A stretch of DNA of 64,000 bases, taken from a virus. The stretch spans positions 32,001 to 96,000 of IMG/VR virus record IMGVR_UViG_3300028591_000123; one strand, written 5' to 3'. The translations under genes were made by a program, and so were the position numbers. Of this stretch, positions 10,058 through 54,605 are shown in pieces; the stretch's first letter is position 1, and each line of letters starts with the position of its first letter. The notes under the pieces were generated by a model. That model ran no database searches. It was given only the letters and a program-made list of their open reading frames with translations, and had not been told where the DNA came from.

Positions 10058-11128
10058 CTATTTTTCTCTCGTTATTATACATAGGGCTTTTTGATTTCCC
10101 GGGGTATGTTTTGCATAATAATCCTGAGCAGCGTACTTTCGATCCTGCAGGTGGCCGAAATAACCACCATCAGATTTCCTATTACCTAATGAATTAAGAA
10201 CCCTTACGAATTTTGTGTTTATATTAATCTTATCTAACATTTCATAATGGCCGAAGATTGAATAATTGCTTCCGTAGTTCACACCACTATCTTGATAACC
10301 AATGTGCCATATTATAGCCGTATTTGGCTTGTCAATAAGTTTTCCAATGTTTTTCAGTTTCTCTTCCGTTGTCTTTCCCATATCGCTATAATATTTCCAT
10401 TGTATCTTAAAAACAGCGCCATATGTCTTTCCGCACCACATTATTCCGGATTCGATTCCAGGATGTCCCGTGCCCGCAGATGTCGTACCCATTTTGCTTG
10501 CTAAGAGAGATTCCTTGATTGTTATATTCAAAAGCTTTTTCATAGCCTGTTGAACAGCATTTGGACCGCAATTATAACTGGTGTTCTGTCCTAATCCTGC
10601 TTCTGAAGTGGTGAGATGAGGTTTTGATACATATATTCCATTAAATGTTTCCGCTTTTTTTGTGCTTGCGGAAGCTTTCTTTTTCAAATCATTTGAATTA
10701 AACATACAATAATTCGGCAAAACATTGTTTGTCAGATAAAAATTCCCAATCTTAGCGACACAATAACTGAATAATTCATAATCAATCTTATACCCTTTAT
10801 GAGATATATAAGCCGGAACTCTTGAGTTTGTCTCGCAATAATCAATAAATCGCTTGATCATATCAAGATAATCGTTTTTCATGATTTTCAGATTACTGGT
10901 TGAAGAGGAAAAGCTTATATTATATCTGTTCATGTTCTTCAAGGTCACATCATTTTGTTTTATATTATATATGACTTTTGATATTAGGTATGTTATTGTG
11001 TAATTATTATATTGTTTGCTGTTGATTGTGGAAAAATTTGGCAAAGTTTTGTTTTTTTCAATAAACACCTTAATCTCTTGTGATTCCTTTAATAAGTCTT
11101 TTTTTAAAATTTTAACCAAAAATCGCAT
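10058..11128 (-). CDS. Pseudomurein endoisopeptidase-type lysin (pseudomurein-binding repeats + C39-like peptidase, PeiR-like)
   Basis: N-terminal repeats (KNDYLDMIKRFIDYCETNSRVPAYI; FIEKNKTLPNF); catalytic motifs QNTSYNCGPNA (Cys), GHYEM (His), VLNSLG. Confidence 0.85.
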   Translation of the reverse strand: MRFLVKILKKDLLKESQEIKVFIEKNKTLPNFSTINSKQYNNYTITYLISKVIYNIKQNDVTLKNMNRYNISFSSSTSNLKIMKNDYLDMIKRFIDYCETNSRVPAYISHKGYKIDYELFSYCVAKIGNFYLTNNVLPNYCMFNSNDLKKKASASTKKAETFNGIYVSKPHLTTSEAGLGQNTSYNCGPNAVQQAMKKLLNITIKESLLASKMGTTSAGTGHPGIESGIMWCGKTYGAVFKIQWKYYSDMGKTTEEKLKNIGKLIDKPNTAIIWHIGYQDSGVNYGSNYSIFGHYEMLDKININTKFVRVLNSLGNRKSDGGYFGHLQDRKYAAQDYYAKHTPGNQKALCIITREK

Positions 11129-11455: not shown

Positions 11456-11659
11456 TGCCATTAATCCTAATAATCCTGCGATGATAAAGTAGAATACTAT
11501 CACAAAACTCCACCAGACCCATCCGGTCAATCCTAATGCGGTTGCCAGGTAAGTTCCCAGGATAATCGTACAGATAAATGGCAGTACTGCCAGTACGAGA
11601 ATGAATAATATTATTCCCATGACTCCAATTCCAATTAATAATTCTTCAATCATAAGCAT
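11447..11659 (-). CDS. Small hydrophobic membrane protein
   Basis: 70 aa, almost entirely hydrophobic; GGAGG RBS. Confidence 0.65.
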   Translation of the reverse strand: MLMIEELLIGIGVMGIILFILVLAVLPFICTIILGTYLATALGLTGWVWWSFVIVFYFIIAGLLGLMARI

Positions 11660-11707
11660 CCTCCTTTTATTTCATATTTATTTTTTTAATATTTATTTTC
11701 ATATCCT

Positions 11708-13872: not shown

Positions 13873-13890
13873 GTTTCTTCACCATCCTGT

Positions 13891-23247: not shown

Positions 23248-24678
23248 CTAGCAAACTTCCGAAACACTTGAAAGTTCTTTGCAATTTGATTTTGAAACCA
23301 TGTTCTTTCCGCCCCATCCGGCATAACGGCTTACGCCATCTACAATTACCCATCCGTTCCCATATTTGGCTTCTGGGTAATAGTGTCCCGCGGTATGTCC
23401 TGTTGTGAATGTAACTGAGAAACAATGATGGAGTTTGTTTGGAACTCCAACCGCTGTGAATAAATCACATAATGCCTTGGCTGTATCTGTACAATTAGCG
23501 GATTTGCTGCTAAGAACTTGTTCTGTACTTTGTCTACTACATTCATAATGTCCATAATGCATATTTGATTTCCACCAGGCCCATATTTTCTGGACTTTTT
23601 CATCATTAGTGGTGGCGTTGCCTACTATCTTTTTGGCGAAATCAGCCACGGTGCCTGATGGGTTTCCCGCCATCTGGCCACCACCACCGCTGCTTCCGCT
23701 GCTGTTATTAGTATAATATCCGCCACCGGTTTCCGGGACTTCCGGATTGTCGGGGTTTTCGGGGCCGTATCTCAGGTCGAGGTCCGCTACGAATGTTTTT
23801 TCACTAGCGTTCCAGTTTACTGACAAGCCGTATATGTAGTAAAGGTTTTCCGTCATTGTGAGGGGGTTTCTTAATTTTATGTATTGTCCGACCGCAAGCT
23901 TGCCACTATAGAGTGCGGATACTTGAACGGTCATGTTAAAATCTCTAATGTTCGCACTCAAGTATGCTTCTGCTTTCACCCTCGCTTGAGTATATGAAAG
24001 GGTCTTGTCGGAATAGGTTGCAGAAACCTCGCCATATATATTAACAAGGTCTTCATTGCATACTTTGACAGTTCCATTCCTGTAATGCAGGATGACAGTA
24101 TTTATCATTCCCGCCTGATTGACATCAACATCAAGGCTTCCATCTTCCTGCATCCAATAATCAATCACTATCGGCTTGTCAGGAAAGCCGGTTTCCTTGT
24201 ACCCTCCGGCGAATAATGTGTTAAAGGATACAAAATATACTGTATCATTAACTATGTAATAATGCGCATCAATGGCGGATGCTATGCTGTGAAGAACATC
24301 ATCAAAGGTTAAATCTTCATTATCAGCCTTGTCCGCTGAGGAATCATCGGAATCGGATGAGCCGCTTCCGGAAGAACCACCTCCTGATGATTCTGAGTCA
24401 CCGCTTAACAATGAATCTTCATCAGTAGCGTCAGGTTCTTCAAGGTCATCGGAGGCGGATGTTTCGCATCCTTTTATCCTCATGATATCCCTTATCAGAG
24501 CATTCTGGTTCTTATAATGGGAGAAAGGACCGCCCATCTCATTAGTTATGAGGGCTATGTTTCTCCATGCGCACCGTGCTCCTGCCAGTCTTTTTGAGAA
24601 GCTGTATAATTGTTTCTTGCTGTATGTTGGATAGGCCCATCTTAAATGGGTGTAGATTGAGTCGAAAACCTGTGTCAT
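23248..24678 (-). CDS. Baseplate hub C-half paralogue 1 with transglutaminase-like (Cys-His-Asp) domain; putative virion pseudomurein hydrolase
   Basis: ANCTDTAKALCDLF...GHYY...WVIVDGV triad; hub-like DGSLDVDVNQAGMINTVILHY...LSYTQARVKAEAYL. Confidence 0.7.
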   Translation of the reverse strand: MTQVFDSIYTHLRWAYPTYSKKQLYSFSKRLAGARCAWRNIALITNEMGGPFSHYKNQNALIRDIMRIKGCETSASDDLEEPDATDEDSLLSGDSESSGGGSSGSGSSDSDDSSADKADNEDLTFDDVLHSIASAIDAHYYIVNDTVYFVSFNTLFAGGYKETGFPDKPIVIDYWMQEDGSLDVDVNQAGMINTVILHYRNGTVKVCNEDLVNIYGEVSATYSDKTLSYTQARVKAEAYLSANIRDFNMTVQVSALYSGKLAVGQYIKLRNPLTMTENLYYIYGLSVNWNASEKTFVADLDLRYGPENPDNPEVPETGGGYYTNNSSGSSGGGGQMAGNPSGTVADFAKKIVGNATTNDEKVQKIWAWWKSNMHYGHYECSRQSTEQVLSSKSANCTDTAKALCDLFTAVGVPNKLHHCFSVTFTTGHTAGHYYPEAKYGNGWVIVDGVSRYAGWGGKNMVSKSNCKELSSVSEVC

Positions 24679-26539: not shown

Positions 26540-29500
26540 TTAGTTGTTGTTTGTCTGGGTTGTTCCGGTAGGGAGGTTGTCCCCGTCGGTAGCTCCGACT
26601 GGGTCGTACTCCGCCTCCTCATCCTGTATGATCTTAGGATCGGATCTTTCCTGAACATCAATGATGGCGTTCTTAACCGCACTCTCAATATTCTTTGCCT
26701 TGTCGGCCGTGTTGATTTTGATGTCACGGAGCTTGAAGTTCTTATTCATGACCGTGAAGCTCGGAGCCTTTTTGAACAGGTTCACATTGAGTTTTGGTAT
26801 GGCTTTCTTGTTACAGATAGCCAATTGAACATAACGCTGCCTGTTGTTGTTATCATAATCTTTGCCACCACCGCCTTTTCCGGAGCCACCTGTCTCATCA
26901 TCAGCAGCATCTTCGGCATCCATATTGCTTTCATTGATTGTGTTTGTTAAGTTCATCAAGTATTTAATAACATCTGGATTATTCTTAACAACTTCATCAT
27001 TAAGTTTCATGATATCTGTTGCGTTATAATCTGAATAACCACTTGATGGAAAACCAGGGATATTTGATGCAAGTCTTTTCATGAAATTTCCAATAGTTGG
27101 ACTCTCATATTCCTTAGCTATGTCAGTATACTTTTGGTGGGTTTTCCAATATGAACCATTTTCTACTCCATATTTTTTCAAATATTCTTCAGAACTTTTT
27201 TGAGCTTTCTTCATAGCTTCAGCTGGAGTATCTCCGGCGTTCAATCTTTCGTAATATTTTGCCTGATACGCTTGAGTTTGATATTTGGTATCCATTGCCT
27301 TTACAGCATTTTTATACTCATCGCTGCTTTTATTTCCGTCTTTAATTATTTTGTTTAATTCTCCAACACTCTCTACTGGAGTATCAGATACGGCATTATA
27401 AGAATCAACGGCTGCTTCATTCGCTGTACTGACAATAACTTGACTTAATTGTTGACTAATAACAGCTAAACCTTGGTTCATTGCCTGCTCAACACTAACA
27501 CTTGATCCAGTATTAGAGTGAATACCGCTGCTGGTAGCTAATTGAGAGTATAATCCTTGTGTTTGATTAATTAATTCAGGTTTAACTTGTGTTTCAGCAA
27601 CTTGATATAAATCGTTTAAAGTATGTAACATTACTAATTGTTGGGCCGCGATTTTACTAATACCTAAACGCTGACCAAGATTAGCGAATTTCTTATCAAT
27701 GTTTTGAATATTTTTTAGAACTAATCGACCATTTTTGAATTCAAATCTAAAGTTCTTACGTTCAAAGCGGTTTAATTGTTTATCATATTGTTTTCCAAGT
27801 TTCGCTAATTGAGTTGCTGAGTATCCTCCATTGTGAGTACCAATATCATTCCAATAACTATTATATTGAGGATATAATCCCTTATTTCCTCCAAAGATTG
27901 TTGATATGTCATTTCCGCCAACATTCCTTTTATCAAATGACGCCGCTAACTTTTCAAAATCTGTTTCCAAATCCTCAGCGTTTTTAATACGAGTAGTAAA
28001 CTGCAATCCATTTTCAGATGATTGAGCAATATCTTCAAGATATTCCTCTCCTTTATCTGTGAGTCCAAATTTTGTTTTCCAAGCATTAATGTCAAGTATA
28101 TCTCCTAAACCATATTCATCTTTAGAATTCTTAATACCGCTACCTTCATACCATTCCGTGAAATCAGCTTGTGTTCCGTAATGTCCTAATTGTCCGGTAT
28201 CATCTTCAACATTAGCTTCATTTCTTAATGCCGCGGTCATTTGCAATTGTGATGTGTACAATAATCGAGTATTTGCTTCAAGAGCGGTTAAATCTTTATT
28301 GAGCTGTTCTGATTCAGTTAACTCGAGATTCTCATCCGTTAAGAGTCTGAGATCCTGCATTGTAACATCTTTATCCCGACCTTCTTTCAAAGCTTCTTCG
28401 ATTGCTGTTTCCTTATCATCTTCACTAACATTGGAGAAGTTTTCATCAGCTCGTTCTTTGCTGGTTAGGAAATTTGATTCAGCTTGTGAATATCTCTCCT
28501 GAGCCTCGGACGTTTCTGTTTGGATTTTTGTGATTCTTTCAGATTCCTTTTCAACGACTGCGGAATAGGCTTGCATAACACCTTGGAAGATAGTCATTGC
28601 GGCCATCATTGGTCCGCCCATAAGATTGGTTACTGATCCAATAGCTCCTCCTAGTTTTCCGAGAGCTCCTGTTGAGTCCTTTATTCTTTCACCGAAGCCT
28701 CTGGTTTGTACTTGACCATCCTTGTCAGTATAAGTGGATGGGGCGATACCAAGACGTGCCTTAAATCTTTGGAAAGGACTTAGTCCTGACATATACTCTT
28801 TCATCAATATATCTTTTCCAGCACTATCAGGTAATGCTCTAAGTTGTTCAAATGATAAACTACCTTTACCTGGTCCATATTTAGCGTTCATTTGTTCTGC
28901 GTGTCTTTTATTATTTTCGGCAATATCATCCTGATATTTTTTAACCTTGTTAGCTTGTTTTTCATTCAGCTTATCTAATCGTACAGCTCTTTCCTCTGCC
29001 GTACTTTCAACACCAAACAACTGATCCAAACCAAGAAGAGGGTCTTCTAAATTCTTACCATCAACTTGTTTTCTTCGCCATTTTGAAACAGCTTCCGGAT
29101 CACGATAAACAGGTCCATAAGGACGTACAAAAGGTGGTAGTTCAAATTCATCCCTAAATGGTGTCAAATCCGCATTCGCAAGATTAGAAAGAAAATCATC
29201 ATTTAAATTATCAAGTAAAACAACATCTCCAGTTCCAAAGAATCTTCCACCCGCATACGTATACTCACCACTTGCATTTTGCAATATTTTCTCACGTTTA
29301 GAAGCTTTATACTCTTCACTATTGAAATACTCATCATTAATTTTATTCATATCATCAGGATTCAAGAATCTGCCTTCACTCAATATTCTTTCCAAAGCTG
29401 ATAATTGCTGAGATTCTATTTGCTTAATCTCTTCCAATTTTTCCTCAAACTTCAACATGTTAGTTATTGTTCCGAATTGCTTCTGACCTTCTTCGGTTAG

Positions 29501-32500
29501 GAAATCATCAAAACCTGGTAAATTTGGAGTATCAGCCTGACGAGCATAAACACCTTGTTTGATATTGCGTCCAAATAATTCCTGTTCTTCTACACTAGCT
29601 TCTTTCCACCATTCTACAAACTTGTCATGATCAAAGAATCCCTTTTGTGCGCTTAACAATTCATTTTCCGCCAGCATCTTGAATGGGTAACCCCTTACAC
29701 TTTCAGGGGTATCTCCACGCCCTTCATGGATTTTCATTCTACGATAAGGATTTCTCGTTTCATCCAATTCATCAATAAGTGCTTTAACGGTATGAACCGG
29801 AGCGATACCCTTCTCTATATTATCATCGAATTGACTTAATAATCTGGCGATATTTAGATTGTCATGAAGAACTCCTTTTTCTGATACAAATTTGTTTATG
29901 ACATCATCTTCAACATGGAACGCTCTGAACCAGTTGATCAATTCATCATAATTCTTTGCATAGAAACGGGAATAGGCTTCCTGTTGTTCTCTTAATGTAC
30001 CATTAACAATCTTGTCCATATAATAAGCATGGGATTTCTCTTGTTGAGCCTTATTACGATCACTTAACCCTTCTATTGTTTTTGCCATGTTTTCAACTTG
30101 ATTTGGTTCTGGAACGGTGAATACTCCTTTTTCAACTTCATCATTAAGGAGTGAACCCTGACTGAATGAAGGAGTAACGTCTCCTATTGTTGTTATTTTT
30201 GGTTCATCAAGTTCAGGCATATTAGGATATCTTTCCTTCATTGCAAGAATTGTTTTTCTTGATTTATCTATATCCCTAAATTGACCATCCCTATTTATTG
30301 TAGGAGTGAGACCAAGATAATTACCATCTTCATCATAACTATGATAATAACCCAATTCACTATTCGCATGAATACGTTTATCCTGATCTTTTATGATTGC
30401 AGCATCTTCTTCCTTAATCTGTTCTCTAAATGCAATCATTCGTTCATAATATCTTCTAATAAACTCTTCCCGTTCTTTAACTCGCTTGTTGAATTCTTCA
30501 ACAATTGCCGGATCAGCCCAGTCTTCATTATCCAAACCAAAGAAACTTCGTCTTCTGCCGTCTATATCAATTTTAAATAACTCGTCAAATTCGTCATTCA
30601 ATCTTTGAAGTTCTTCTGTTTGATATCTTAAATCCGTTCTTCCATCAGTTCGAGCTATAATGCTTGTACTATACAATAAATCTTCCATACGGGCGTGAGT
30701 GACACGATATGTGTCAGCCACAACTTTAGCGGCCATAACTTCATTAGTCAATCCCTCGGTTATATTATAAATAGGGTTGCTGAGGTTACCTTGTGTCTTT
30801 TCAAGACGAGGCATTGGAATAGCTCCCTCAGGCAAGCTGGCGTCAGAATCCTTAAGAGCCTCCATAACCTGCATTATGCCTGCCATTCTAATTGGCACAG
30901 CTCCCATTCCATGGAAGCCCTTCGCTCCAATATTGCTGTGTAATCCACCAACAATTTTTGTCGGATCCGCAACACCATTTCCATCTAATTCCATTCCGAA
31001 TTGTTTGCCAATCCAATTAATAAATTGATGAGCATCATAATCATTGATTGAATTTCTTCTTAATTCCTCAAAAAGATCTTCAACTCCCGCGAAAACCTCG
31101 TCTGGTGCTAAATCTCGAACCCTTGACGCCATTGTTTCGATGCTTTCTTCTTTAAGGATTCCGGCACTATCCCATGCTGACGGACCCCTTTGTGTTCCTT
31201 CTCCTGATAAAATATAATCCATTGTTGACTGAGCCATTTTACCATTATCAACACGTTCCTGAAGACTTTGTCTGATCACAGCCAAATCTTCTTCGTAAAG
31301 AGGATTAGGGTTCAATGTTTCACTAGCAGACCTGTTTAATTCAGCATAACTGAAAGCGGCTTTCCCTTGTCTGATATCTGCGGTTGCAGCGTCAATACCT
31401 TTGATCCGAGATTCCAGTTCTTCCAACTGGATCCTATCGTTTTCATCAATTTGAGCATCGCTTTCAATTTTCGCCGCCAAAGCGTTTTTCTTTTCCATTA
31501 ATAATTGTCTGCGTTTATCCAGATTAGCTAATGCTCCTTGCGTACCATTCATTATTTCATATTGCTTATTAAGTGACTCCGCAGCCAGCATCTGTAATAA
31601 CTGAAGGCTTCTTGCATCCTTAAAAGCGGCTGGTGGAATAGGATTTGATTGCTCTGCAACAACCCTGGCACGTTGTGGATTCTCGCGAGTATCCTTAGCC
31701 AACATCGTATTATACTCGTCCATTTGATTTCTATGAATACCCTTCAGAGTATCTTTATCAATGGACGGTCTAGTATATTCCAAATTGTTATCTTCATATA
31801 GTATTTTCTCAGCTGTATCGGCATTCAATGTTTCTAATAAAGGTGGTGTTTCCTGTCCAATGATAGTGTTTACAGTAGGAGTTGTATGAGCTGTTTCACC
31901 ATGTAAGGAAGCTTGATACATAACTCTCATACTATCCTCGAAAGCCGCTCTCTCCAAAGGATTGTTTCTCTGATGAACAATATCACTAACAGAAACAACT
32001 TTTCCAGAGGCTGTCATCATACTCGTAATAGCTTTAATGATATCATCTGAAATATTAAGACCCAAACTTTGCAAAGTCGCTCTTAATTGAGCAGTTAATA
32101 CCTGTCTGGCTGCTTCAACTCCACGAACATTCTCTACATCTCGAAAATCAGTTGTAATGAAATCGAATGCGTCCTTGAGTAAAAAATCTGCCCCTAAAAG
32201 ACTATCTAAGAAAGCAACATTACTACCTTGAGCAAGAATCTTCCATTCTTCGACACCTTCTTCATTATAATATTTAAAAACATCACTATCCAAATTAATA
32301 GGTTTGATTCCAGTCATACCACTAATTTGAGCTTCACTAATCCAGTTTTTTATTTGATGCTTATCAGTATCATTTGTTGGGTTGAATTTTATTTGATTAT
32401 CAGAAATTGACATTGGAATATTGCCAAAACTACGTTGCAAAGTCTCAAATACCCAATCAGGTTCAAGCCCAAATTCAAGTAATTTATTAGGATCAAGGTC

Positions 32501-35500
32501 TAATGTCCAGTTATCCCGATCAATCGTTCCACTCATAACATCCTTTAAGAAAACAGGATTTAAAAACTGAGCAATGTTCCTAGCCTCTTCCTCAGTATTG
32601 AATTTTCCTTTCATTGATAATAATGTATATGGATTAGAAACTGTTCCTCTAAAAATATCATCAATGATTTGTATTGGGTTCATAGCGGTTCCGAGACGTT
32701 CGTGCTTACCACTATCAATAACTAATTGAGTGATTTGATTCATTGCTAATTGAGCAGCTTCTACACCCGTAATAGGTCCAGCGTTTGGTCTGAAATCTGC
32801 TATTCTCGCATCAATTATATCCTTGCTGAGAACCTGTTCAGGCAATGCGCCTTGTCTGACTTTTTGTACTTCTTCGGGCAGAACCAAAGGCATGTCTTCA
32901 AGACTTCCGAGAACCGTAGCCTTAATTATATCATCTCCAACCGCTCCAAGTGTCATATCATAACCAAGCCCTCGCAAATATTTCCCAATGACATGAATGG
33001 TATCATCAGTTCTCCTGCTGATATCATCAAGATTAAAGATATCGCTTCTTGGATCGAAAGGAGCATTTTCATGGAATGTTGATATTTGATTTGCTTTATC
33101 AATTTTTGCTTCAATGGCAGCCAGTTCTGCTTTTTTAGCTGTTAGTTTTGCCTTTATCCTTTCACTCTTTTCTCTGATTTCTCTTGTTTCCTGTTCGATT
33201 TCGGCGGCGTCTTTTTCAATCTCTATATAACCATTGGAGACTTCAATCTTCTCCTTGTTTCTTGTGTTTATTCTCCAAATATCATTTAAAAGTTTTTTAC
33301 CGCTTCTTGATCCGGGGCCAAAACTCTTGCTTCTTGAATTTGTTAACAGATAATCATCAAGCTCTCCTTTCTCATCAAAGACATTGTAAGCAGGATTATT
33401 ACGAAGATCTGTTAAATATCCAAATTGTTCCGCAAGAACATCTCTTCTGTTTTCATAATTTCTTACTCTTGTTTCATATTTTTCAAGACGTTTTTCATAA
33501 TTCTTACTGCCTGCCCTAGGTTTTCTGAAATTATTCCTACCGGGTTCGTTCATATAATTATCTGGAATAACTTCTGTTGGGAAACGTTCCTGAAACTCCT
33601 TTGTTCCCATAAAAGTAATCGCTTCTTTTTTTGCTGACGCAATAGCTTCGTCAAGTGTGTTTTTAGCGATTTGATTAGCGTCTTCATAACGCCATTTAGT
33701 TCCAGGTTTTGGCTTACGTCTTATTGGATCAACAGGTGTCCCCTCGTTAACCGCTAAATCAGTTTCTAAACGGGAAATCTGATTTAATAGTTCTTTTCTT
33801 TGTCCAACATACTCTAGTCTGCGTTCTTCTGCCTCATCAATATCTAAGAACGGCATTATTTCATATAATTGATTATCAAGTTCCTCCACTTTGGTTCGAA
33901 GCACGGTTGCGGTTTGACCATAAGCTTCGTAAGTTTCAACATCTCCTCGTAATCCAGCCGCATAATGAATATCTCTTACTTCTTCAAATTGTTTCCACAA
34001 TTTTTCACGTTGACTCATTAATTTATTATATTCCTCATGTTTGGGGATGACCGTATTCTGATATGCAATAGCGTCTTCAAGAGCCTGACCCTCTAATTGC
34101 ATAACATCCTTATTAGGTAAGATATTGGAAATGCGTTCATTGTTTTCATCAAACCAACCGGATTCTCCAAATGTCCGATGATATGTATCACCCGTTGGGG
34201 AATGTAAATATTCCGTAGAACCATCAACAACTGTCCTACTCCAACCATCTCCAAATGAAACACGAGAAAATCCTCCAAGAGTTCTTTGAGAATCATTATT
34301 TTCATTGGAAATAAACGTTTCATCTTCAAAGCCTGAAACTGGGTTATTTATCGTGGAAGATTCATCGCCTATTGATGACTGTTGTGAGTCAGAATTTAAT
34401 CTTCGTCTTGTTCCTCCAAATTGTCTCTTTAAAAGATTTTCTATATTAATAATATGTTGCAATGTATCGCGAGGTATGTCGGCATCGATAATGTTTGACA
34501 TCTCAATTAATGACCTTCCGGTGACGTCCGCATCCGCAAGTGCCGTATGTTGTGTTCCATTAAAATCAATGCCAAGGTTTCTCGCGATTGTGCCTAATTT
34601 GTTATCTGAGAAATTAAATCCTCTTGATGCTATTGTCTGAGTGTCTATGAATCTGATATTGTTAAAGTCATTAATACTATATCCCGCGGCTTTCAAGAAT
34701 TCTTCATTCCTAAGCACGGCTTCTCTTAACATGCTCATATCATAAGTGATATTCTGACCGACTAAAGGAGTTGCTCCTGAGAGAACATCTTCCTCTTTGA
34801 ACATATTAAACAAATCAACTAAGGCGTCAAGTTCTGAAACTCCATTTGCGAAAGTGTTATTTGACCTCAGTCCATCAATATTATGCAACATTCTAAGAGC
34901 GGGAGAATCAGGTTCTTGTTCCATAAGTCGGGCGATTTCATCAGGCTGATTTATGTTCTTCTCAAAACCTGTTGTCGCTATTCCGTTTTCAAATTTCTGA
35001 ACACCAACCTGAACCATCCTATGTTTGCTTGGATCGAGACCCGTGTTTTCCGTATCAATCGCCAGGAATTTATCCCTAAACTGGTTTCCAAAAGGTCTTC
35101 CGTTTAGAGCGTATTCAGCATTATCCAATTCTTTTTTAATCCCGATTAATTGACTGTATTCTCTTTGAATGTCTGAATCATTATATGTTTTAAATCTTCC
35201 GCTGCCGGTGGATGGATATGTATTTTCAATATCTCTTAATCTTTTATCAATATTGAGGCGCATTGCTGACATGTTGTCATCATAAACACCTAAGTCCCTA
35301 GCTAACGCTGCCTTACCTGATTCTAATCCAATATTGTTTTTCTGATCTCCATTCAAGGATGTGTATGTGTTTCTGTTAATAAAATTATTCAAGTCATAAT
35401 AGATACTGCTGACTTTACTGCTGATATTGTCTTGATACCCCTTGATATTATTGAGGAGTTTTGTATGGCCTTTGATAGTGCCTAAGTTATCTACGATTGT

Positions 35501-38500
35501 ATTCAATAATCCATTGACCGTGTTATCCCTTGGTGTTTGTTCTTTGTTCTTAGCTAAATACGTATCATACTTATCACTATATCCATAAGGATAATATTTG
35601 TCAATATCAATTCCGTTCACTCCTGTTGATATGGAATCCCTATATTGTTTTGATGGACGTTGAGCTCCCGCAAAAGTATCTCTTTGATTGATTATCGCTT
35701 GTCTCACGGCAACAGGGTTTCTTTCCATATTTGTAACAATATCTTTTGCAACCCCATCAACCATATGCTGCAATACTGTCCTATCTTCTTTTCCATTAAT
35801 CACAGGATGTGACAAGCCAAATGGTGATAATTCTTCATTGCTTAAGCCTTTTCCTCTATCGGCGTACCATTTCCATGTAACCCATTGGAAACCTCTGTCA
35901 TCTTCCATTGCATGAGCTAATCCCAATGCGTTTGTTTCCGGATTGATCTTGGCGACATAATGTCCTTTTTGTCCTGTTGCCTGAGATTGCAGGCGAGTGT
36001 CGGAACCGAGGTTCTTGATCTTATCTTCATCTATATCATTTTCCTGGAAATGAACAAATTCATTTCCAGCATAATCTAATTTATTATATTTAACACTTCT
36101 GCTTGTGTTATAAAGTCTTCTATTAGCTTCCGCTGCATATCTGGCTTGTTCTGAACGAGTATCATTTAAAGTTACAGGATAATAATCATCATTATTGTAA
36201 TCATATCTCAATACTTTATTATATCTGTCTCTAACAATGACAGGTTTTCTTTGTTCAAATGAAGAGTCTTTTGAATAATTAGAATATTCTAAAACTTCGT
36301 ACTCTTCATCTTTCTTACCTCTGAATTGTGCTCCTTTATTAATCCATTTTCCATCATCGGTTTTAATATAAACCTGATTTGTCGCTGGATTAATTTTAAC
36401 ATTGCCGCTCACTCTTTGTCCATTTGCATCATATGAATTTCCTATGAATTCTCGTCGGTTTCTATCTAATCGATTATAATATAAATCATCGCTGCTTAAT
36501 CTTCTTGCCGCTTCGTATAATTTATCAGCCGCACGATTCAGATTGTTAGCCCAATTCGTTGAAATCTTGTCTCCCCAATTACGCTTATAATCAGATGATG
36601 AGTTTGAATTTCCCGTAGCGGCATCAGTCTGAAGCGCTGTATTATTTTGAGGTATACTTTGAGAAAATACATTAGTTGCGGAAACAATAGAATTGTTAAT
36701 ATCATTTAAACCCTGAGTGGTATTACTTAGGTCACGGCTTATCCTATCTAAAACAGTTCTTCTATAATTCATGCCATCATCGGATGATATGAATTTATTT
36801 GGATCCATAAGAGCAACGGCTTTTCCCGGATTCCCCGGTTTATCTTCATATTGTCCATAATTTGATACACCGAAATATCCTGTTGTTGAATCCTTACGAG
36901 TATCTAATGTTCCTGTTTTTGCATTCAAAACACCATATTGACCAAGCCCTTTATCATATGAAAAGATGTTTCCGGAAAAGTCTCCGCTTTTATATATAGC
37001 TCCTCCAAAAGCATCCGCTATCATATTGCCGATATATCTAACTTTAATGTTGCCGTTCGCATCAGTTTTCCCATATAATGCGGCATTGCGTATTTGTCGA
37101 CCTAACTCGTTTCGGATGTGATATTGAAGTTCTGGACTGTAATCACCACCAAACATTTTCATTGTGTTAGGGAGATTCTCATCTATTACACTTGCATCAA
37201 TATAACCTGAGAAATCACTTTTATCTCCTCCCATCGCTAGGAATGGAGCAACTTCTTGCTGATAATAGCTTTGAACAACACTCTTAAACTCATCCTTGAT
37301 GGCGGCATTTGTATTCCCAACTTCTTTAAGAGCTTGTAATTCATTTAATAATAATCCATTTTGAGTTCTTTGGTTAGGAGTTAATGCGTTAACCGCATCT
37401 GGATGCATATATAAAGTTTTTCCAAAACCGTTTCCTCCGGTTTGGTATCTCATATGTGTTTCATCAACATTGGAGAAAGTGGCGATTTGTTTTTTAGCCG
37501 CAGCTTGCTGTTGTAATTCATTTGTTAATGCCTTATTCTGAACCAATAAATCTTCTGTTGTTACAGCTTCTTGTTTGGTTAATCCAACCTGTTCTCGAGT
37601 TTTGGAAACCAGTTCCCAAACAAATTTCAACACTTCCTTGATAGAACCAAGAGCCCTACCTAAAAGAGAGTTAACCACAGCAACAAGACCCCAGATAGCA
37701 AACTTACTACCATATGAATCATTTGCAAGGAAATCAACAATTGGCTTCATTATCTCAAGTATTGGAGATAAGACATCAGCTATGGTCTTACCATAATTTC
37801 TCCAAATGGTTTCCAATGATTTCATTATCTCTTCTTGTTGTGAAGCGAAATTCTGCATGCTCCTATTAGCCAAAGTCTCCGCGCTTGCCTTCTCACGGAT
37901 TTTCGCGGTGCTTTCTTGAATCGTATTTTCATCAAGCTTCATCATCTGCTGGCCCATCTTTGTACCAACAAGCTTACCCCATATTTCAAGCTGATCCATT
38001 GTGGATTTGTTATTATCCTTCATTGCCTGACGAATGATACGAATCTGTTCTGAAATTGGTTTCATTTCCTGCTGACCATCTTCCCAGAGACTATACGGTT
38101 CCAAGCCTATTTCCTTCAACGCTTCCCATACTGAACTATCCTGTGTAGCTGGTTTGGACAGGAAAGCTCTTAATGCGGTACCGGCCATTGAACCAACTAC
38201 ACCTTTTTGAGCGAAAGCTGATGTAGTACCCATAAGGTCGTATAATAGGTCTTCATTGCTTAAGTTCGCTCCTGCGGCCGCCGCGGTACCTCCAACATAT
38301 TTCAGGGTCTGAACAACATCATTCACATCCAAAGGGCCACTTAAGGATGTTCCAACAAGCATATTGGTGACTTTTTCAGTATCCATACCAAAATCGCTAC
38401 TTTGAATGTCACCACCTAATAATGAAGTGGTTTGAACAATCTCTTCCAAAGCCGTGGCTAAGTTCATACCCTCAATCTTAGCCAGGGAAAATCCTTGCCT

Positions 38501-38902
38501 TAATGTTTCTATCTGATTGTTCACATCCGTCAAACCGGCTCTGCCTAATGTGGTCAGTCCTTCGTTCACATCATCTATTCCCATCCTGAATTCTGATGAG
38601 AATTGCTGAGCTGTATGACCGAGTATCTGCATTTCCGCATTAGTTGAACCTGAAACAGTTTGTACAATAGCCTGTCCTCTTTCAAACTCTCCATATGCCC
38701 TTGCGGCTTGTGTTGATAAAATACCGAGGCTAACCCCTGCTGTCGCTACGGCAGCATCTATCGCCCCAACATTCCTAGCGATTCCCTCACCAACATTGGA
38801 GAATACTCCAACCAGTTGGTTGAGGTTTGTCTGAGCCGCTACAATACCGCTCATATCCTTTGCCACAAAGGACATGTTAATATTCATATCTTCTTGAACC
38901 AT
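26540..38902 (-). CDS. Giant tape measure protein (4120 aa) with ~2800-aa cargo insertion
   Basis: Follows tube and chaperone genes; N-terminal aa ~60-330 match the phage minor-tail/TMP pattern (FERGQAIVQTVSG...LGRAGL...MAGTALRAFL); hydrophobic helices near aa ~400 and ~3350. Confidence 0.9.
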   Translation of the reverse strand: MVQEDMNINMSFVAKDMSGIVAAQTNLNQLVGVFSNVGEGIARNVGAIDAAVATAGVSLGILSTQAARAYGEFERGQAIVQTVSGSTNAEMQILGHTAQQFSSEFRMGIDDVNEGLTTLGRAGLTDVNNQIETLRQGFSLAKIEGMNLATALEEIVQTTSLLGGDIQSSDFGMDTEKVTNMLVGTSLSGPLDVNDVVQTLKYVGGTAAAAGANLSNEDLLYDLMGTTSAFAQKGVVGSMAGTALRAFLSKPATQDSSVWEALKEIGLEPYSLWEDGQQEMKPISEQIRIIRQAMKDNNKSTMDQLEIWGKLVGTKMGQQMMKLDENTIQESTAKIREKASAETLANRSMQNFASQQEEIMKSLETIWRNYGKTIADVLSPILEIMKPIVDFLANDSYGSKFAIWGLVAVVNSLLGRALGSIKEVLKFVWELVSKTREQVGLTKQEAVTTEDLLVQNKALTNELQQQAAAKKQIATFSNVDETHMRYQTGGNGFGKTLYMHPDAVNALTPNQRTQNGLLLNELQALKEVGNTNAAIKDEFKSVVQSYYQQEVAPFLAMGGDKSDFSGYIDASVIDENLPNTMKMFGGDYSPELQYHIRNELGRQIRNAALYGKTDANGNIKVRYIGNMIADAFGGAIYKSGDFSGNIFSYDKGLGQYGVLNAKTGTLDTRKDSTTGYFGVSNYGQYEDKPGNPGKAVALMDPNKFISSDDGMNYRRTVLDRISRDLSNTTQGLNDINNSIVSATNVFSQSIPQNNTALQTDAATGNSNSSSDYKRNWGDKISTNWANNLNRAADKLYEAARRLSSDDLYYNRLDRNRREFIGNSYDANGQRVSGNVKINPATNQVYIKTDDGKWINKGAQFRGKKDEEYEVLEYSNYSKDSSFEQRKPVIVRDRYNKVLRYDYNNDDYYPVTLNDTRSEQARYAAEANRRLYNTSRSVKYNKLDYAGNEFVHFQENDIDEDKIKNLGSDTRLQSQATGQKGHYVAKINPETNALGLAHAMEDDRGFQWVTWKWYADRGKGLSNEELSPFGLSHPVINGKEDRTVLQHMVDGVAKDIVTNMERNPVAVRQAIINQRDTFAGAQRPSKQYRDSISTGVNGIDIDKYYPYGYSDKYDTYLAKNKEQTPRDNTVNGLLNTIVDNLGTIKGHTKLLNNIKGYQDNISSKVSSIYYDLNNFINRNTYTSLNGDQKNNIGLESGKAALARDLGVYDDNMSAMRLNIDKRLRDIENTYPSTGSGRFKTYNDSDIQREYSQLIGIKKELDNAEYALNGRPFGNQFRDKFLAIDTENTGLDPSKHRMVQVGVQKFENGIATTGFEKNINQPDEIARLMEQEPDSPALRMLHNIDGLRSNNTFANGVSELDALVDLFNMFKEEDVLSGATPLVGQNITYDMSMLREAVLRNEEFLKAAGYSINDFNNIRFIDTQTIASRGFNFSDNKLGTIARNLGIDFNGTQHTALADADVTGRSLIEMSNIIDADIPRDTLQHIINIENLLKRQFGGTRRRLNSDSQQSSIGDESSTINNPVSGFEDETFISNENNDSQRTLGGFSRVSFGDGWSRTVVDGSTEYLHSPTGDTYHRTFGESGWFDENNERISNILPNKDVMQLEGQALEDAIAYQNTVIPKHEEYNKLMSQREKLWKQFEEVRDIHYAAGLRGDVETYEAYGQTATVLRTKVEELDNQLYEIMPFLDIDEAEERRLEYVGQRKELLNQISRLETDLAVNEGTPVDPIRRKPKPGTKWRYEDANQIAKNTLDEAIASAKKEAITFMGTKEFQERFPTEVIPDNYMNEPGRNNFRKPRAGSKNYEKRLEKYETRVRNYENRRDVLAEQFGYLTDLRNNPAYNVFDEKGELDDYLLTNSRSKSFGPGSRSGKKLLNDIWRINTRNKEKIEVSNGYIEIEKDAAEIEQETREIREKSERIKAKLTAKKAELAAIEAKIDKANQISTFHENAPFDPRSDIFNLDDISRRTDDTIHVIGKYLRGLGYDMTLGAVGDDIIKATVLGSLEDMPLVLPEEVQKVRQGALPEQVLSKDIIDARIADFRPNAGPITGVEAAQLAMNQITQLVIDSGKHERLGTAMNPIQIIDDIFRGTVSNPYTLLSMKGKFNTEEEARNIAQFLNPVFLKDVMSGTIDRDNWTLDLDPNKLLEFGLEPDWVFETLQRSFGNIPMSISDNQIKFNPTNDTDKHQIKNWISEAQISGMTGIKPINLDSDVFKYYNEEGVEEWKILAQGSNVAFLDSLLGADFLLKDAFDFITTDFRDVENVRGVEAARQVLTAQLRATLQSLGLNISDDIIKAITSMMTASGKVVSVSDIVHQRNNPLERAAFEDSMRVMYQASLHGETAHTTPTVNTIIGQETPPLLETLNADTAEKILYEDNNLEYTRPSIDKDTLKGIHRNQMDEYNTMLAKDTRENPQRARVVAEQSNPIPPAAFKDARSLQLLQMLAAESLNKQYEIMNGTQGALANLDKRRQLLMEKKNALAAKIESDAQIDENDRIQLEELESRIKGIDAATADIRQGKAAFSYAELNRSASETLNPNPLYEEDLAVIRQSLQERVDNGKMAQSTMDYILSGEGTQRGPSAWDSAGILKEESIETMASRVRDLAPDEVFAGVEDLFEELRRNSINDYDAHQFINWIGKQFGMELDGNGVADPTKIVGGLHSNIGAKGFHGMGAVPIRMAGIMQVMEALKDSDASLPEGAIPMPRLEKTQGNLSNPIYNITEGLTNEVMAAKVVADTYRVTHARMEDLLYSTSIIARTDGRTDLRYQTEELQRLNDEFDELFKIDIDGRRRSFFGLDNEDWADPAIVEEFNKRVKEREEFIRRYYERMIAFREQIKEEDAAIIKDQDKRIHANSELGYYHSYDEDGNYLGLTPTINRDGQFRDIDKSRKTILAMKERYPNMPELDEPKITTIGDVTPSFSQGSLLNDEVEKGVFTVPEPNQVENMAKTIEGLSDRNKAQQEKSHAYYMDKIVNGTLREQQEAYSRFYAKNYDELINWFRAFHVEDDVINKFVSEKGVLHDNLNIARLLSQFDDNIEKGIAPVHTVKALIDELDETRNPYRRMKIHEGRGDTPESVRGYPFKMLAENELLSAQKGFFDHDKFVEWWKEASVEEQELFGRNIKQGVYARQADTPNLPGFDDFLTEEGQKQFGTITNMLKFEEKLEEIKQIESQQLSALERILSEGRFLNPDDMNKINDEYFNSEEYKASKREKILQNASGEYTYAGGRFFGTGDVVLLDNLNDDFLSNLANADLTPFRDEFELPPFVRPYGPVYRDPEAVSKWRRKQVDGKNLEDPLLGLDQLFGVESTAEERAVRLDKLNEKQANKVKKYQDDIAENNKRHAEQMNAKYGPGKGSLSFEQLRALPDSAGKDILMKEYMSGLSPFQRFKARLGIAPSTYTDKDGQVQTRGFGERIKDSTGALGKLGGAIGSVTNLMGGPMMAAMTIFQGVMQAYSAVVEKESERITKIQTETSEAQERYSQAESNFLTSKERADENFSNVSEDDKETAIEEALKEGRDKDVTMQDLRLLTDENLELTESEQLNKDLTALEANTRLLYTSQLQMTAALRNEANVEDDTGQLGHYGTQADFTEWYEGSGIKNSKDEYGLGDILDINAWKTKFGLTDKGEEYLEDIAQSSENGLQFTTRIKNAEDLETDFEKLAASFDKRNVGGNDISTIFGGNKGLYPQYNSYWNDIGTHNGGYSATQLAKLGKQYDKQLNRFERKNFRFEFKNGRLVLKNIQNIDKKFANLGQRLGISKIAAQQLVMLHTLNDLYQVAETQVKPELINQTQGLYSQLATSSGIHSNTGSSVSVEQAMNQGLAVISQQLSQVIVSTANEAAVDSYNAVSDTPVESVGELNKIIKDGNKSSDEYKNAVKAMDTKYQTQAYQAKYYERLNAGDTPAEAMKKAQKSSEEYLKKYGVENGSYWKTHQKYTDIAKEYESPTIGNFMKRLASNIPGFPSSGYSDYNATDIMKLNDEVVKNNPDVIKYLMNLTNTINESNMDAEDAADDETGGSGKGGGGKDYDNNNRQRYVQLAICNKKAIPKLNVNLFKKAPSFTVMNKNFKLRDIKINTADKAKNIESAVKNAIIDVQERSDPKIIQDEEAEYDPVGATDGDNLPTGTTQTNNN
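31850..32850 (-). other. RNA polymerase subunit A'' (Rpo1C)-like domain inside TMP
   Basis: GVEAAQ...TQ; VSNP; EEWKILAQGSN; TTDFRDVENVRGVEAARQVL..QL..TL..LGL; MMTASGKV; LERAAFED...ASLHGE; NTIIGQ, all colinear with Rpo1C conserved blocks. Confidence 0.85.
34490..35075 (-). other. DEDDh (DnaQ-like) 3'-5' exonuclease domain inside TMP
   Basis: ExoI AIDTENTG (D1283,E1285), ExoII GQNITYD (D1388), FIDT, ExoIII HTALADAD (H1452,D1457). Confidence 0.9.
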
Positions 38903-38966: not shown

Positions 38967-39168
38967 AAAATAAACTAACATGATATTCTAATTGAAATTC
39001 CTGCCTCCATTGCAGGAAAGCGTATAAAAACATTTTCTCCTCATATGAAAGAAATCCTTTTCTTTCAAGTTCACCTATTTCCGATGGTGTCTTCCTTAAC
39101 ATTAGGCATAATTCACCATCAAGCTGCAATTGTCTTGAATCCTTGATCTGCTCATAATATTTATTGAA
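38965..39168 (-). CDS. +1-frame C-terminal extension of tail assembly chaperone (GT-like product)
   Basis: 67-codon frame FNKYYEQIKDSRQLQLDGELCLMLRKTPSEIGELERKGFLSYEEKMFLYAFLQWRQEFQLEYHVSLF, entered at TCA TTT CAA TAA. Confidence 0.65.
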   Translation of the reverse strand, partial: FNKYYEQIKDSRQLQLDGELCLMLRKTPSEIGELERKGFLSYEEKMFLYAFLQWRQEFQLEYHVSLF

Positions 39169-39838
39169 ATGAGTCTACATCGGAAATATCCGTTAATACT
39201 TTTTGAACCTCATCAAAGAGTGCTACAATAATACCATTTTCAACATTATCCGCCCATTCCTGTTCAGTTAATCTTGGTTGAATGACAGTTGAAGCCAGAG
39301 TTCTTCTTCTGAACGCCATGGATTCCTCATATTCCGCCATGGTTAATTCATTGAGTTTCTTTCCGATTAATCTGTGATTCAACAGGTGATTGTTTTCTGT
39401 CTCGGATAATTTCCTAACCATGAATGACATTTTCACCGGTTCATGTGTTGCCGGATCTTCTCCAACATCGATGTATACTTTTACAGGCTTTTTTAATCTG
39501 TTGAAAAGCATGTCTCTTGTAGCGGTGATTTCCTTGAATTCTTTGATTTTTTTATCTTCATACTCTACTTTAGCTTTGACAGCTCCTTCTGGCATAGATT
39601 CCGCTCTCATTGCAGCGATAACTTCCTCTGGGGAAGCGCCTTCTCCTCCAAGATTTTCAGTTCCTTCGAGACCTTCTTCTTTTGCGGCTTCTTGAATGTC
39701 TTCTAAAGCCTTTTCGGTGTAGGTTTTGTCTTCTATGATTTCTAATCCTTCTGGAAGATCTGCGTTTTTCATTCTGACGGTTTCTTTTTTTTCTTGACTG
39801 TCCCAGTCTTCATTTGGTATGATATAATCGTTATTCAT
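39161..39838 (-). CDS. Tail assembly chaperone
   Basis: Acidic 225-aa ORF between tube and TMP genes. Confidence 0.75.
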   Translation of the reverse strand: MNNDYIIPNEDWDSQEKKETVRMKNADLPEGLEIIEDKTYTEKALEDIQEAAKEEGLEGTENLGGEGASPEEVIAAMRAESMPEGAVKAKVEYEDKKIKEFKEITATRDMLFNRLKKPVKVYIDVGEDPATHEPVKMSFMVRKLSETENNHLLNHRLIGKKLNELTMAEYEESMAFRRRTLASTVIQPRLTEQEWADNVENGIIVALFDEVQKVLTDISDVDSFQ

Positions 39839-40054
39839 TTCATTACCTCATATTATTTATAATTTAAATATGAGATATATGAATATTTAAAGATTAATTA
39901 AAAAAAATAGTGTGTTGTTAATCTGATTGAAAAAGTGTAAAATCAAAGAACCCATAGAGCACCTAATTCGCCGCTCGTCACGACAAGACTAAATGGGAAT
40001 GCTTTTATCTTTGAAATCTTACACTTATTATAATGTATATTAATATGAAAAATA

Positions 40055-40087
40055 GAAAAAATGACAATCCTATGATAGGATCATCAT
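40055..40087 (-). terminator. Terminator after tail tube gene
   Basis: ATGATGATCCTATCATAGGATTGTCAT hairpin followed by TTTTTTCTATTTTT. Confidence 0.6.
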
Positions 40088-40098
40088 TAAAAACGCTC

Positions 40099-40554
40099 TT
40101 ATAAGTTGTTACAGGTAGGGTTTACAAAGGATGCGATTTCGGTGATGTTAAAGGTGATATCTAAAGCTTTACCACTTACATCTTCTTCAACCGGATCCCC
40201 TTTACCTAAAGTTCCTAAACTGTTCTTTTCTAATAAGCAACCGGTTAAAGCACAAACCTGTTGTCCGGTAGCGTTGTTTCCCGGGTCAGCGGTGTTGTTG
40301 AAAAGAACCATGTTGAACTGACATCTTTTCAGGTAAATGTTCATCAAGGTGATGTTGGAAAAGATTCTTTTGATTTTAAAATCAATCTTTTCATTTCCTG
40401 GTATAAGAGCTGCTGCTTTTGGACTTCCTGAATTGTAATATTCTTTTAAATCACGACTTAAATCGATAGATACTTCTTCTACTGGGATTCTGGTTGAAGC
40501 TCCGAGAACAATATAACCATTAGTCCAGATTTGAGTTGAGTTTTCGTCTGCCAT
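40099..40554 (-). CDS. Tail tube protein
   Basis: 151 aa directly after the sheath; XkdM-like pattern. Confidence 0.8.
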   Translation of the reverse strand: MADENSTQIWTNGYIVLGASTRIPVEEVSIDLSRDLKEYYNSGSPKAAALIPGNEKIDFKIKRIFSNITLMNIYLKRCQFNMVLFNNTADPGNNATGQQVCALTGCLLEKNSLGTLGKGDPVEEDVSGKALDITFNITEIASFVNPTCNNL

Positions 40555-40567
40555 TAATTATTCCTCC

Positions 40568-42457
40568 TTATATTACAATTACACCTAAATCAATATCTCT
40601 TAAAGCTCCAACAGGCACAATCTTGGTTCTGATAACAATCTTGGATTCTCTGATAAGAGTACCTTTGTCATCGAATCTTACCATTGCTGCTGAGGATACA
40701 TCTACATCCCATGGGGTGAGGCCGTATTCTTCGATAGAGATTAATGATTTATCGGTTTCGGTGATGTTTCTTAATTCATTTGATAATGCGGTTCTGAGGG
40801 TAGCTTTTAAGTCCTCAGTTAAGTTCTGACCTTGGTAAGGCTTGCAGATTGTAATGAGTCTTTTCTCTACGTGAGCCACGATTGACATGATGGACTCGTG
40901 GGATAAGACATCGGAACTGGAGGTGGTTACTCCTTCTACAAAGGTTACTTTACCATATTCTTTCTTGAAGATGATACATCCAGCTTGGTTCATTTCAATC
41001 ATGGTGTTTCTGAGAGCGTTCATGTCCATGTTGTAATCGAATGGAATGATGTCTTTTACACCATTGAGAACTTTCTTGTCTTCTCCACCAAAGATTGCGT
41101 ACTGGTATGCGAGGTGAGAACGGATACCGGTGTATAATTGTACACATTGCCATGGTTCGAGGTAGGTTGCTTGGGAGTATTCGTCTTCTTTGAATACTAC
41201 ACCTTGACCGATGTAGATGATGTATGGGTCGTTGTATGCTTCTGCTTCGCTCATTGCCTGAATGTATGCTCCGGCAGAGCCGTATGGGGTTTGTTTGTTT
41301 TTAACACCCGTGTTGAAGTCTTTTCCAGAACTTTCTGGGATGAATCCGGTGATACCGAATCTGATTCTTGCAACATCTTCTTCGTTCATACTGTTGACGT
41401 GGGTTACCATTACATCGTGTGGTATTGGAGATCTGGATAATACTGATACTCCGAGAACATCTTCTCCCTCTAATTCTCTGAATGCTTTTTCAAATACTTT
41501 CTTCTGACCTGCTGCGGCTGCTGCTTTAGCGTCGTCATCGATGTCGGTTGCTTGGGATGGAACGAGAGTTCCGTCAGCTCCTACATCCATGTAGGTTGCC
41601 TCAGCGGTTTCGGTATGGGATTTTTGTTCAAATACTTCGGTGTAATCGTCTTCGGTTTTTCCATCTTCAAAGGTGGTTACTGCATCGCTGTTGGAAGTTT
41701 TGGTTGTTCCGTTTGCATCGACAAAGAATGAGTTTGAACCGGAACTGTCTTCAAGGATGCTGGTTGTGAGCACATATTTTTTAGGAGTGTATGATTCATA
41801 AGTGTAGGTGACAGTAGGTTCTCCTGCTTCGGAAGTTTGCACTTTACCATTAGAACCTCCAGTTAACACACCGTCTCCTGGTTCTGAGGTGATTTCAAAG
41901 TAACCTTTGAGCTTGTTGTCGGTAGCGGTTACTAAATAATCCTGACCATCATTCTTTTCGGCGGTTAAACCATCGTCAACGATTTCAAGGTAATCTCCAG
42001 CCATGGTTTGGATACGGTCGAATACGTTTCCTAATGAACTGATACCTTTATAGGTTTTTTCTCCTAATTCAGGGACTTTGAGGATTAATCTGTATCCATC
42101 ATAATCTGGATCTTTCTTGATTAATACTTTGGTGTCTTCTATTGGTTTTCCTTTACTGGTTCTTCTTATGGTGTAACTTCCTGCTTCTTCAAATGTGTAT
42201 TGGATAGAGTTGTACTCCATACCATCATATTGTACTCTGACAATAAGCAGTCCTTTTGGATTTTGGTCGAAATGAGGTCCAAAATCTACTCCGAAGATAT
42301 CTTTTGCTTCACCATTGGAACGAACGAAAGTAGGGGTGAGAATAGGTCCCTTGGTCGCTTCAATGACATATGCGAAAAGATATTCGGAGTTTCTAACAAC
42401 ATCTAAATTTCCAGCAGTTACGTCTAATAATCTAAATGTAGGTATTTTAACAACCAT
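40568..42457 (-). CDS. Tail sheath protein
   Basis: 629 aa; C-terminal EMNQAGCIIFKKEYGKVTFVEGVTT...IMSIVAHVEKRL...KIVPVGALRDIDLGVIV sheath motif. Confidence 0.85.
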   Translation of the reverse strand: MVVKIPTFRLLDVTAGNLDVVRNSEYLFAYVIEATKGPILTPTFVRSNGEAKDIFGVDFGPHFDQNPKGLLIVRVQYDGMEYNSIQYTFEEAGSYTIRRTSKGKPIEDTKVLIKKDPDYDGYRLILKVPELGEKTYKGISSLGNVFDRIQTMAGDYLEIVDDGLTAEKNDGQDYLVTATDNKLKGYFEITSEPGDGVLTGGSNGKVQTSEAGEPTVTYTYESYTPKKYVLTTSILEDSSGSNSFFVDANGTTKTSNSDAVTTFEDGKTEDDYTEVFEQKSHTETAEATYMDVGADGTLVPSQATDIDDDAKAAAAAGQKKVFEKAFRELEGEDVLGVSVLSRSPIPHDVMVTHVNSMNEEDVARIRFGITGFIPESSGKDFNTGVKNKQTPYGSAGAYIQAMSEAEAYNDPYIIYIGQGVVFKEDEYSQATYLEPWQCVQLYTGIRSHLAYQYAIFGGEDKKVLNGVKDIIPFDYNMDMNALRNTMIEMNQAGCIIFKKEYGKVTFVEGVTTSSSDVLSHESIMSIVAHVEKRLITICKPYQGQNLTEDLKATLRTALSNELRNITETDKSLISIEEYGLTPWDVDVSSAAMVRFDDKGTLIRESKIVIRTKIVPVGALRDIDLGVIVI

Positions 42458-54590: not shown

Positions 54591-54605
54591 AATAATGAAA
54601 CCTCC

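Follow-up and report, generated by a model that had tools for sequence, protein, structure and literature searches.

A complete, diverged homologue of archaeal RNA polymerase subunit A'' within the tape measure protein of a putative methanogen virus

Small viral regulators that bind the host RNA polymerase include ATV ORF145/RIP in Sulfolobus and T7 Gp2, which targets the β' jaw; of the ways in which tailed archaeal viruses seize transcription, almost nothing is known. In Thermus phage P23-45, the 5002-aa tail tape measure protein (TMP) gp96 carries in its N-terminal 1200 residues an active two-barrel virion RNA polymerase with a DFDGD motif, and apart from this motif the polymerase is undetectable by sequence searches (PMC10770324). 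The same protein shows that, within the cell, a domain fused to a TMP is able to work on phage DNA as it arrives (PMC10770324). Polyvalent proteins are described as scarce in archaea, and nearly all those above 1000 aa as bacterial, in the survey by Iyer et al. 2017 (PMC5512222), in which a term search returned neither a tape measure carrier nor a polymerase-subunit domain. Here we analyze a 64,000-nucleotide stretch of viral DNA (“the window”), corresponding to bases 32001–96000 of the linear, 114,461-base IMG/VR record IMGVR_UViG_3300028591_000123 (76% complete by CheckV estimate), in which the middle of a TMP is a complete, strongly diverged homologue of archaeal RNA polymerase subunit A'' (Rpo1C). 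A first-pass annotation of this DNA knew of no described fusion of a TMP with an RNA polymerase subunit; this calls for correction, gp96 being a TMP fused to a polymerase (PMC10770324), though not to a lone, non-catalytic subunit, and our full-text literature search found no description of an A''/Rpo1C homologue in a virus protein or TMP.

A whole Rpo1C homologue in the middle of a tape measure protein

The gene and the parts of its product that carry this finding are as follows.

26540..38902, minus strand: tail TMP, a single open reading frame (ORF) of 4120 aa, assigned by PF10145, five PHROG families and gene position
38003..38614, minus strand: PhageMin_Tail (TMP) domain, aa 97–300, Pfam PF10145 at E 2e-21 (77 bits against a cut-off of 33)
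31838..32785, minus strand: Rpo1C/A''-like domain, aa ~2040–2355, from TIGR02389, Rpo1C in the Protein Data Bank (PDB), an 18-sequence alignment and a fold match
32645..32767, minus strand: degenerate, shortened trigger-loop region, aa 2046–2086, from the alignment
32180..32644, minus strand: jaw-like middle part, aa 2087–2241, the best-modeled part (pLDDT 82–91)
31838..32179, minus strand: C-terminal core with the retained blocks, aa 2242–2355, from the alignment

Searches and structure models employed a test piece of 421 aa (TMP aa 1980–2400, window 31703–32965). Against the NCBIfam profile TIGR02389 (rpoA2), this piece scored 96.1 bits (E 2.1e-27) over profile positions 91–353 of 367, short of the equivalog cut-off of 420.65 bits, while Pfam RNA_pol_Rpb1_5 (PF04998) gave 34.2 bits with the piece and 29.3 bits within the whole TMP, both above the gathering score of 28.5. 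In a PDB search, solved archaeal Rpo1C chains matched the piece at E 6e-13 to 1e-10 and eukaryotic Rpb1 more weakly (E 1e-5), and no bacterial β' chain matched at E≤1. The motifs that the first-pass annotation had quoted are all found in the TMP translation, at residues ~2046–2355 and in the claimed order, and the profile searches it had called for bear out its claim of Rpo1C homology. An alignment with 18 cellular A'' proteins extends from the helix preceding the trigger loop through the C-terminal IxGQ block; it spans the whole subunit, and the insert therefore represents a whole A'' at about aa 2040–2355.

The fold leads to the same assignment. The AlphaFold model of the test piece is confident only for residues 105–335 (pLDDT 70–90), and its top Foldseek match is an archaeal Rpo1C (E 3e-16). 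VIA-align superimposed the model on archaeal Rpo1C with a Z score of 17.6 and an rmsd of 5.0 Å for 275 aligned residues (model 69–369 versus chain 63–376), and by both comparisons the viral domain has the fold of the whole subunit. The domain lies in frame between coiled-coil segments of the TMP, neither free-standing nor beside A' in an rpoH-B-A operon, the standard operon in which the cellular A'' matches sit. The identity of the carrier is equally clear, and its claimed embedding within a true TMP stands: in addition to PF10145, the protein matches five PHROG tape-measure families (28, 1533, 4704, 1272, and 5493; E 3e-31 to 2e-9), and its gene is placed between the genes for the tube and a 225-aa protein and those of the baseplate, so that both the family domain and the position between tube/chaperone and baseplate genes expected of a TMP were found. 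Together, these results confirm that the middle of the TMP is a complete, strongly diverged homologue of archaeal RNA polymerase subunit A''/Rpo1C.

Divergence is concentrated in identifiable blocks. The alignment contains 65 columns conserved at ≥80% in cellular A'', of which the viral domain keeps 33 and changes 32; a further eight conserved columns are deleted. In the trigger-loop block GEPxTQMTLxTFHxAG, only G, A, T, and Q are retained, with S, E, P, M, T, H, A, and G changed, and in the GLPR helix the conserved G, L, and R columns fall within a deletion of ~7 residues; no intact trigger loop is present. The DxRH and RYG..GEKxS blocks are lost as well, and so is the GTG at the C terminus. 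Retained blocks comprise GxEAAR, QGL, MTxxG, LxRAxFE, and GE, and the C-terminal core contains the invariant columns G282, E284, R287, G302, G321, E343, and G356 (numbering of the test piece). The alignment thereby upholds the earlier description of a degenerate trigger loop with the C-terminal blocks kept and, judged from it, the viral domain cannot support catalysis as cellular A'' does. The jaw-like part is acidic (pI 4.4, net charge −11), whereas its counterpart in most of the aligned A'' from non-halophiles is basic; simple binding to DNA is thereby made less likely.

Rpo1C, which is solved in the polymerases of Pyrococcus, Thermococcus, and Sulfolobus, forms a textbook pair with Rpo5, and archaeal polymerase structures containing both have been solved. 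A model of the viral domain in complex with Rpo5, taken from Methanothermobacter and not from the actual host, scored 0.65, compared with 0.00 for the best of three controls; in calibration, 58 of 80 solved complexes but only two of 110 mismatched pairs attained this mark. At least 55% of contacts are shared between the model runs, and the partner has a pLDDT of at least 76. Predicted contacts involve residues 67–71 (the N-terminal GVxAA), 277–289 (GxEAAR), and 315–322 (MTxxG) of the test piece, with the GxEAAR and MTxxG blocks forming most of the interface. Predicted interface residues match the cellular consensus at 57%, versus 28% elsewhere, and in this model the Rpo5-docking face looks preserved. 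Since the Rpo1C-Rpo5 pair has already been solved, passing this comparison shows likeness of the docking face, not binding. In this multimer model, of the kind proposed in the first-pass annotation, the domain is placed on Methanothermobacter Rpo5 via retained blocks, and what this yields is a resemblance.

Variants, selection and ancestry

A second virus, assembled from another sample (ENA scaffold), encodes at a syntenic locus a TMP of 4076 aa in which all three Pfam domains recur. A third variant of like arrangement, on a 10.9-kb contig with ~94.5% identity, matches window 29268–38902 without a break, bridging both domain borders, and a bovine contig covers window 31589–32558. Sheep and cattle gut metagenomes of many studies hold the stretch, at one-third to two-thirds of its sampled words. 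The contig from a metatranscriptome is no proof of transcription, as such libraries may contain DNA. A chimeric assembly at the domain borders, one of the outcomes named beforehand as fatal to the finding, is excluded by the second virus and by the border-bridging contigs of other runs.

Overall identity between the two full-length TMPs is 90%; it reaches ~99% along most of the chain and drops to 67%–88% (about 77%) in the A''-like region. Between these two viruses, dS in the A''-like domain is 0.70 versus ~0.16 in the flanks, and its dN/dS is 0.20. The domain is under purifying selection. The A''-like region has a deeper history than its surroundings, most simply explained by recombination among variants.

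In a maximum-likelihood tree built without named Methanobacteriales A'', the two viral sequences fall within none of the sampled groups and share a stem of great length. An exhaustive HMMER search found no cellular A'' with more than 31% identity to the viral domain; two low-GC gut archaeal A'' are only 28%–31% identical to it. The best cellular matches come from Nanohaloarchaea and other DPANN archaea, which may be because of the acidity of the viral jaw. The base composition of the domain is like that of the rest of the gene. Taken together, the sequence comparisons point to a capture that is old or fast-evolving, not recent. Pattern scans of IMG/VR and GTDB genomes found no relatives of the domain, and a word-indexed search among proteins of 231–737 aa returned nothing at E≤1e-3.

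Gene neighborhood and probable host

Other features of the TMP, and the genes that bear on the type of virus, are the following.

34520..35062, minus strand: DEDDh/RNase_T-type 3'-5' exonuclease domain, TMP aa 1281–1461, PF00929 at E 2.5e-7 (above cut-off) and PF16473 at E 3e-5
28703..29305, minus strand: variable TMP cassette, aa ~3200–3400, swapped between variants, with 12%–33% identity between the two viruses
39161..42457, minus strand: upstream tail genes, namely a 629-aa gene, a tube protein (DUF2001-like) and a 225-aa gene, in an order also kept in the second virus
10058..11128, minus strand: 356-aa protein with two pseudomurein-binding repeats, PF09373 at E 3.5e-14 and 2.9e-8

The exonuclease domain lies ~580 residues upstream of the A''-like domain in the same chain. 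The variable cassette lies near the hydrophobic C-terminal part of the TMP; in the third variant, 505 other letters replace window 28621–29268. The structural module reads, in order, large terminase, portal, GIY-YIG endonuclease, prohead protease, capsid, the 629-aa gene, tube protein, the 225-aa gene, TMP, and baseplate genes, the last of which, 3' of the TMP, encode a transglutaminase-like core, Gp10_C, and Baseplate_J. The 629-aa gene matches no family and would be a sheath gene by position and size only, and the tube protein (40099–40554) has a weak PF09393 match (E 1e-3). The GIY-YIG endonuclease gene (window 47773–48441, minus strand), between portal and prohead protease, resembles a homing endonuclease within a structural module. 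The transglutaminase-like core (E 2e-15) belongs to a baseplate-region protein at window 23248–24678 (minus strand), and a 905-aa tail-region protein at window 3760–6477 (minus strand) has a staphylococcal-nuclease domain (E 6e-8). A 523-aa gene lies at window 53118–54689 (minus strand). A pooled Pfam scan of 88 small ORFs returned DUF2828 (E 1e-27) and DUF7788 (E 4e-46) for the pool as a whole, and no tRNA genes were found in the window.

The 356-aa protein also has weak PHROG matches to endolysin/pseudomurein endoisopeptidase and is probably a lysin, marking the wall type of the host. Two tandem archaeal histone-fold genes (PF00808, E 1e-9 and 4e-7) lie outside the window at 110951–111420 of the virus record, which also encodes ERCC4-HhH and STIV_B116-like proteins. 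On the combined evidence of the pseudomurein-binding repeats, the histones, the ERCC4-HhH/STIV_B116-like proteins, and the ruminant source, the host assignment points to Methanobacteriales, probably Methanobrevibacter or a neighbor. From its gene content, we take the virus to be a contractile-tailed virus of a pseudomurein-walled methanogen; the archaeal host suggested by the first-pass annotation agrees with the repeats and histone genes. A sigma-70 promoter scan was uninformative as to host type.

The virus encodes NrdD and a DEAD_2 helicase, and no PCNA match was found in the virus record. Its DnaE, a DNA polymerase III alpha of bacterial type, is divided into a PHP gene and a core gene at record 10698–14079 (PF02811, E 4e-36; PF07733, E 7e-63). 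One scan with NrdD found no relatives. A relative's NrdD (54% identical) was seen on a virus-like ENA contig of 208,725 bases and 25% GC that encodes PCNA, a DEAD_2 helicase, and dCTP deaminase, and this contig may represent a jumbo archaeal virus whose replication module is akin to that of the present one. Among the close relatives of this NrdD, several measure 975–1049 aa and contain intein domains (PF14890 and PF14528); the NrdD of the present virus is without an intein.

Possible roles of the domain and comparison with known systems

We tentatively favor the view that the domain is an ejected, non-catalytic mimic of Rpo1C that engages parts of the host polymerase. According to this model, the TMP would leave the tail ahead of the DNA, as other TMPs do, and the A''-like domain and the DEDDh exonuclease would enter the host cell as cargo of a single chain. 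Once delivered, the domain would imitate host Rpo1C without being catalytic, its retained Rpo5/H-docking face, and possibly its jaw, holding unassembled subunits of the host polymerase, intermediates of its assembly, or factors by which this module is recognized. The precedent for such cargo is P23-45 gp96, whose TMP-fused domain acts on entering phage DNA within the cell. The few injected copies would make a local role at the entering genome end likelier than global shut-off; newly made TMP acting late in infection is also possible. A narrower version, in which the injected A'' serves as a decoy that docks onto Rpo5/H or joins host subunits and so tethers, poisons, or redirects host transcription at genome entry, is possible, with doubt outweighing confidence. 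Should it hold, a polymerase-subunit mimic delivered by the virion would be on record for the first time, as would a route by which a tailed archaeal virus affects transcription before viral gene expression.

Several observations weigh against a mimic that engages the host polymerase. A virion holds only a few TMP copies, so that stoichiometric shut-off by injected TMP is unlikely; such a number cannot titrate the cellular pool. That the TMP is ejected into the cytoplasm of an archaeon is extrapolated from phages. In the assembled polymerase, A'' has its Rpo5 face buried, and therefore free Rpo5 alone could be bound. The blocks that pack against A' (the trigger-loop helices and the C-terminal GTG) are lost, which renders incorporation into the polymerase doubtful, and a simple swap into the host polymerase with host shut-off, as first proposed, is likewise doubtful; the analysis lends no support to the redirection to viral promoters that was also suggested. 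In addition, the domain is less tightly constrained than the remainder of the TMP (dN/dS 0.20 versus 0.007–0.08), the retained blocks double as the core of the structure, so that folding alone might explain their retention, and the modeled Rpo5 comes from Methanothermobacter instead of the real host.

One alternative is an exapted fold, an anciently captured A''-like domain now serving a non-polymerase purpose as a spacer or plug of the tail or baseplate, a tail-chaperone site, or a binder of some other host protein. The very long branch with at most 31% identity to any cellular A'', the loss of half of the conserved columns, the retention of blocks that form the core of the fold, the looser selection, and the lack of other polymerase parts in the record all argue in this direction. 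However, conservation at the predicted Rpo5-contact positions is about double that elsewhere in the domain, and the complex model outscores its controls. The DEDDh exonuclease carried by this chain is, in addition, a domain of cytoplasmic type, which suits cargo more than a spacer. On balance, we regard an exapted fold as less likely than the mimic, yet as a serious contender.

A role in handling the genome end, in which the jaw-containing domain would grip the viral DNA where it enters first and cooperate with the DEDDh exonuclease during entry, independent of the host polymerase, is improbable. The Rpo1C jaw has been implicated in downstream DNA binding (PMC2675907), and the exonuclease domain precedes it in the same protein; the viral jaw, however, is acidic where most of the aligned non-halophile cellular A'' are basic.

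More improbable still is a virus-made polymerase, TMP-fused or split, of which the A''-like domain is the sole recognizable piece, with the barrels hidden in other blocks of the TMP or encoded by the ~24% of the genome that the record lacks. The precedent of gp96, whose polymerase escaped sequence searches apart from DFDGD, lends this idea some weight, as do the incompleteness of the record, the large TMP blocks without domain assignment (aa 490–1270, 1480–2000, and 2400–3300), and a D-x-D-x-D string at aa 956, the only one in the TMP and without recognizable context. Yet Rpb1_1, Rpb1_2, Rpb2_6, and Rpb5_C found no match at E≤1 anywhere in the 114-kb record. Within the TMP, a relaxed Pfam scan of six blocks gave coiled-coil noise only, a PDB phmmer search of aa 480–1280 and 1460–2040 gave nothing, and hhalign comparisons of these blocks with cellular A' and B' gave probabilities below 1%. 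The AlphaFold model of aa 480–1280 (mean pLDDT 35) was too poor for a fold search, and protein-atlas look-ups of aa 2400–3250 and 450–1270 returned nothing usable. The trigger loop of the one recognizable part is, moreover, degenerate. A' and B are usually better conserved than A'' and should be easier to see, which makes a hidden cellular-type catalytic core in this virus unlikely. Finally, assembly chimera or chance similarity can be set aside, given the profile match at E 2e-27, the second assembly from another sample, the border-bridging contigs, and the gene-like base composition.

The probable hosts belong to the methanogens that dominate ruminant methane output, and the favored reading, a mimic engaging host polymerase parts, can be separated from an exapted fold experimentally. 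Methanogen RNA polymerases have been reconstituted from subunits, and either outcome is therefore testable with recombinant proteins. If the domain binds host polymerase parts, it would offer a direct handle on early archaeal virus-host conflict, and might itself be a natural inhibitor or adaptor for transcription in methanogens; in the absence of such binding, it would plainly exemplify a polymerase subunit fold put to a different use.

Compared to cellular archaeal A''/Rpo1C, the viral domain shares the whole-subunit fold, and its blocks follow each other in an unchanged order between the trigger-loop helix and the C-terminal IxGQ; it differs in being part of a TMP, neither free nor in an rpo operon, in lacking the trigger loop and the DxRH, RYG..GEKxS, and GTG elements, and in its acidic jaw. 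ATV ORF145/RIP and T7 Gp2 are likewise viral proteins aimed at a host multisubunit polymerase, but they are small, newly made, and unrelated to its subunits, whereas here a subunit homologue resides within a virion protein. With the polyvalent proteins of phages and conjugative elements, the TMP would, if delivered, share the plan of one very large chain with several unrelated host-aimed domains, in this case an exonuclease and an A''-like domain. Another near parallel is P23-45 gp96, also a giant TMP bearing transcription machinery homologous to cellular RNA polymerase and presumably delivered by the tail. gp96 carries a complete, active, single-chain polymerase at its N terminus, in a bacterial phage, whereas the present virus, apparently archaeal, carries in mid-chain a lone archaeal-type A'' part that appears non-catalytic. 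Cargo-carrying TMPs are thus known from bacteria, one of them with a working polymerase, while the putative cargo here is a seemingly dead homologue of a host-type subunit, a lone A''-type copy that appears to be new in a TMP.

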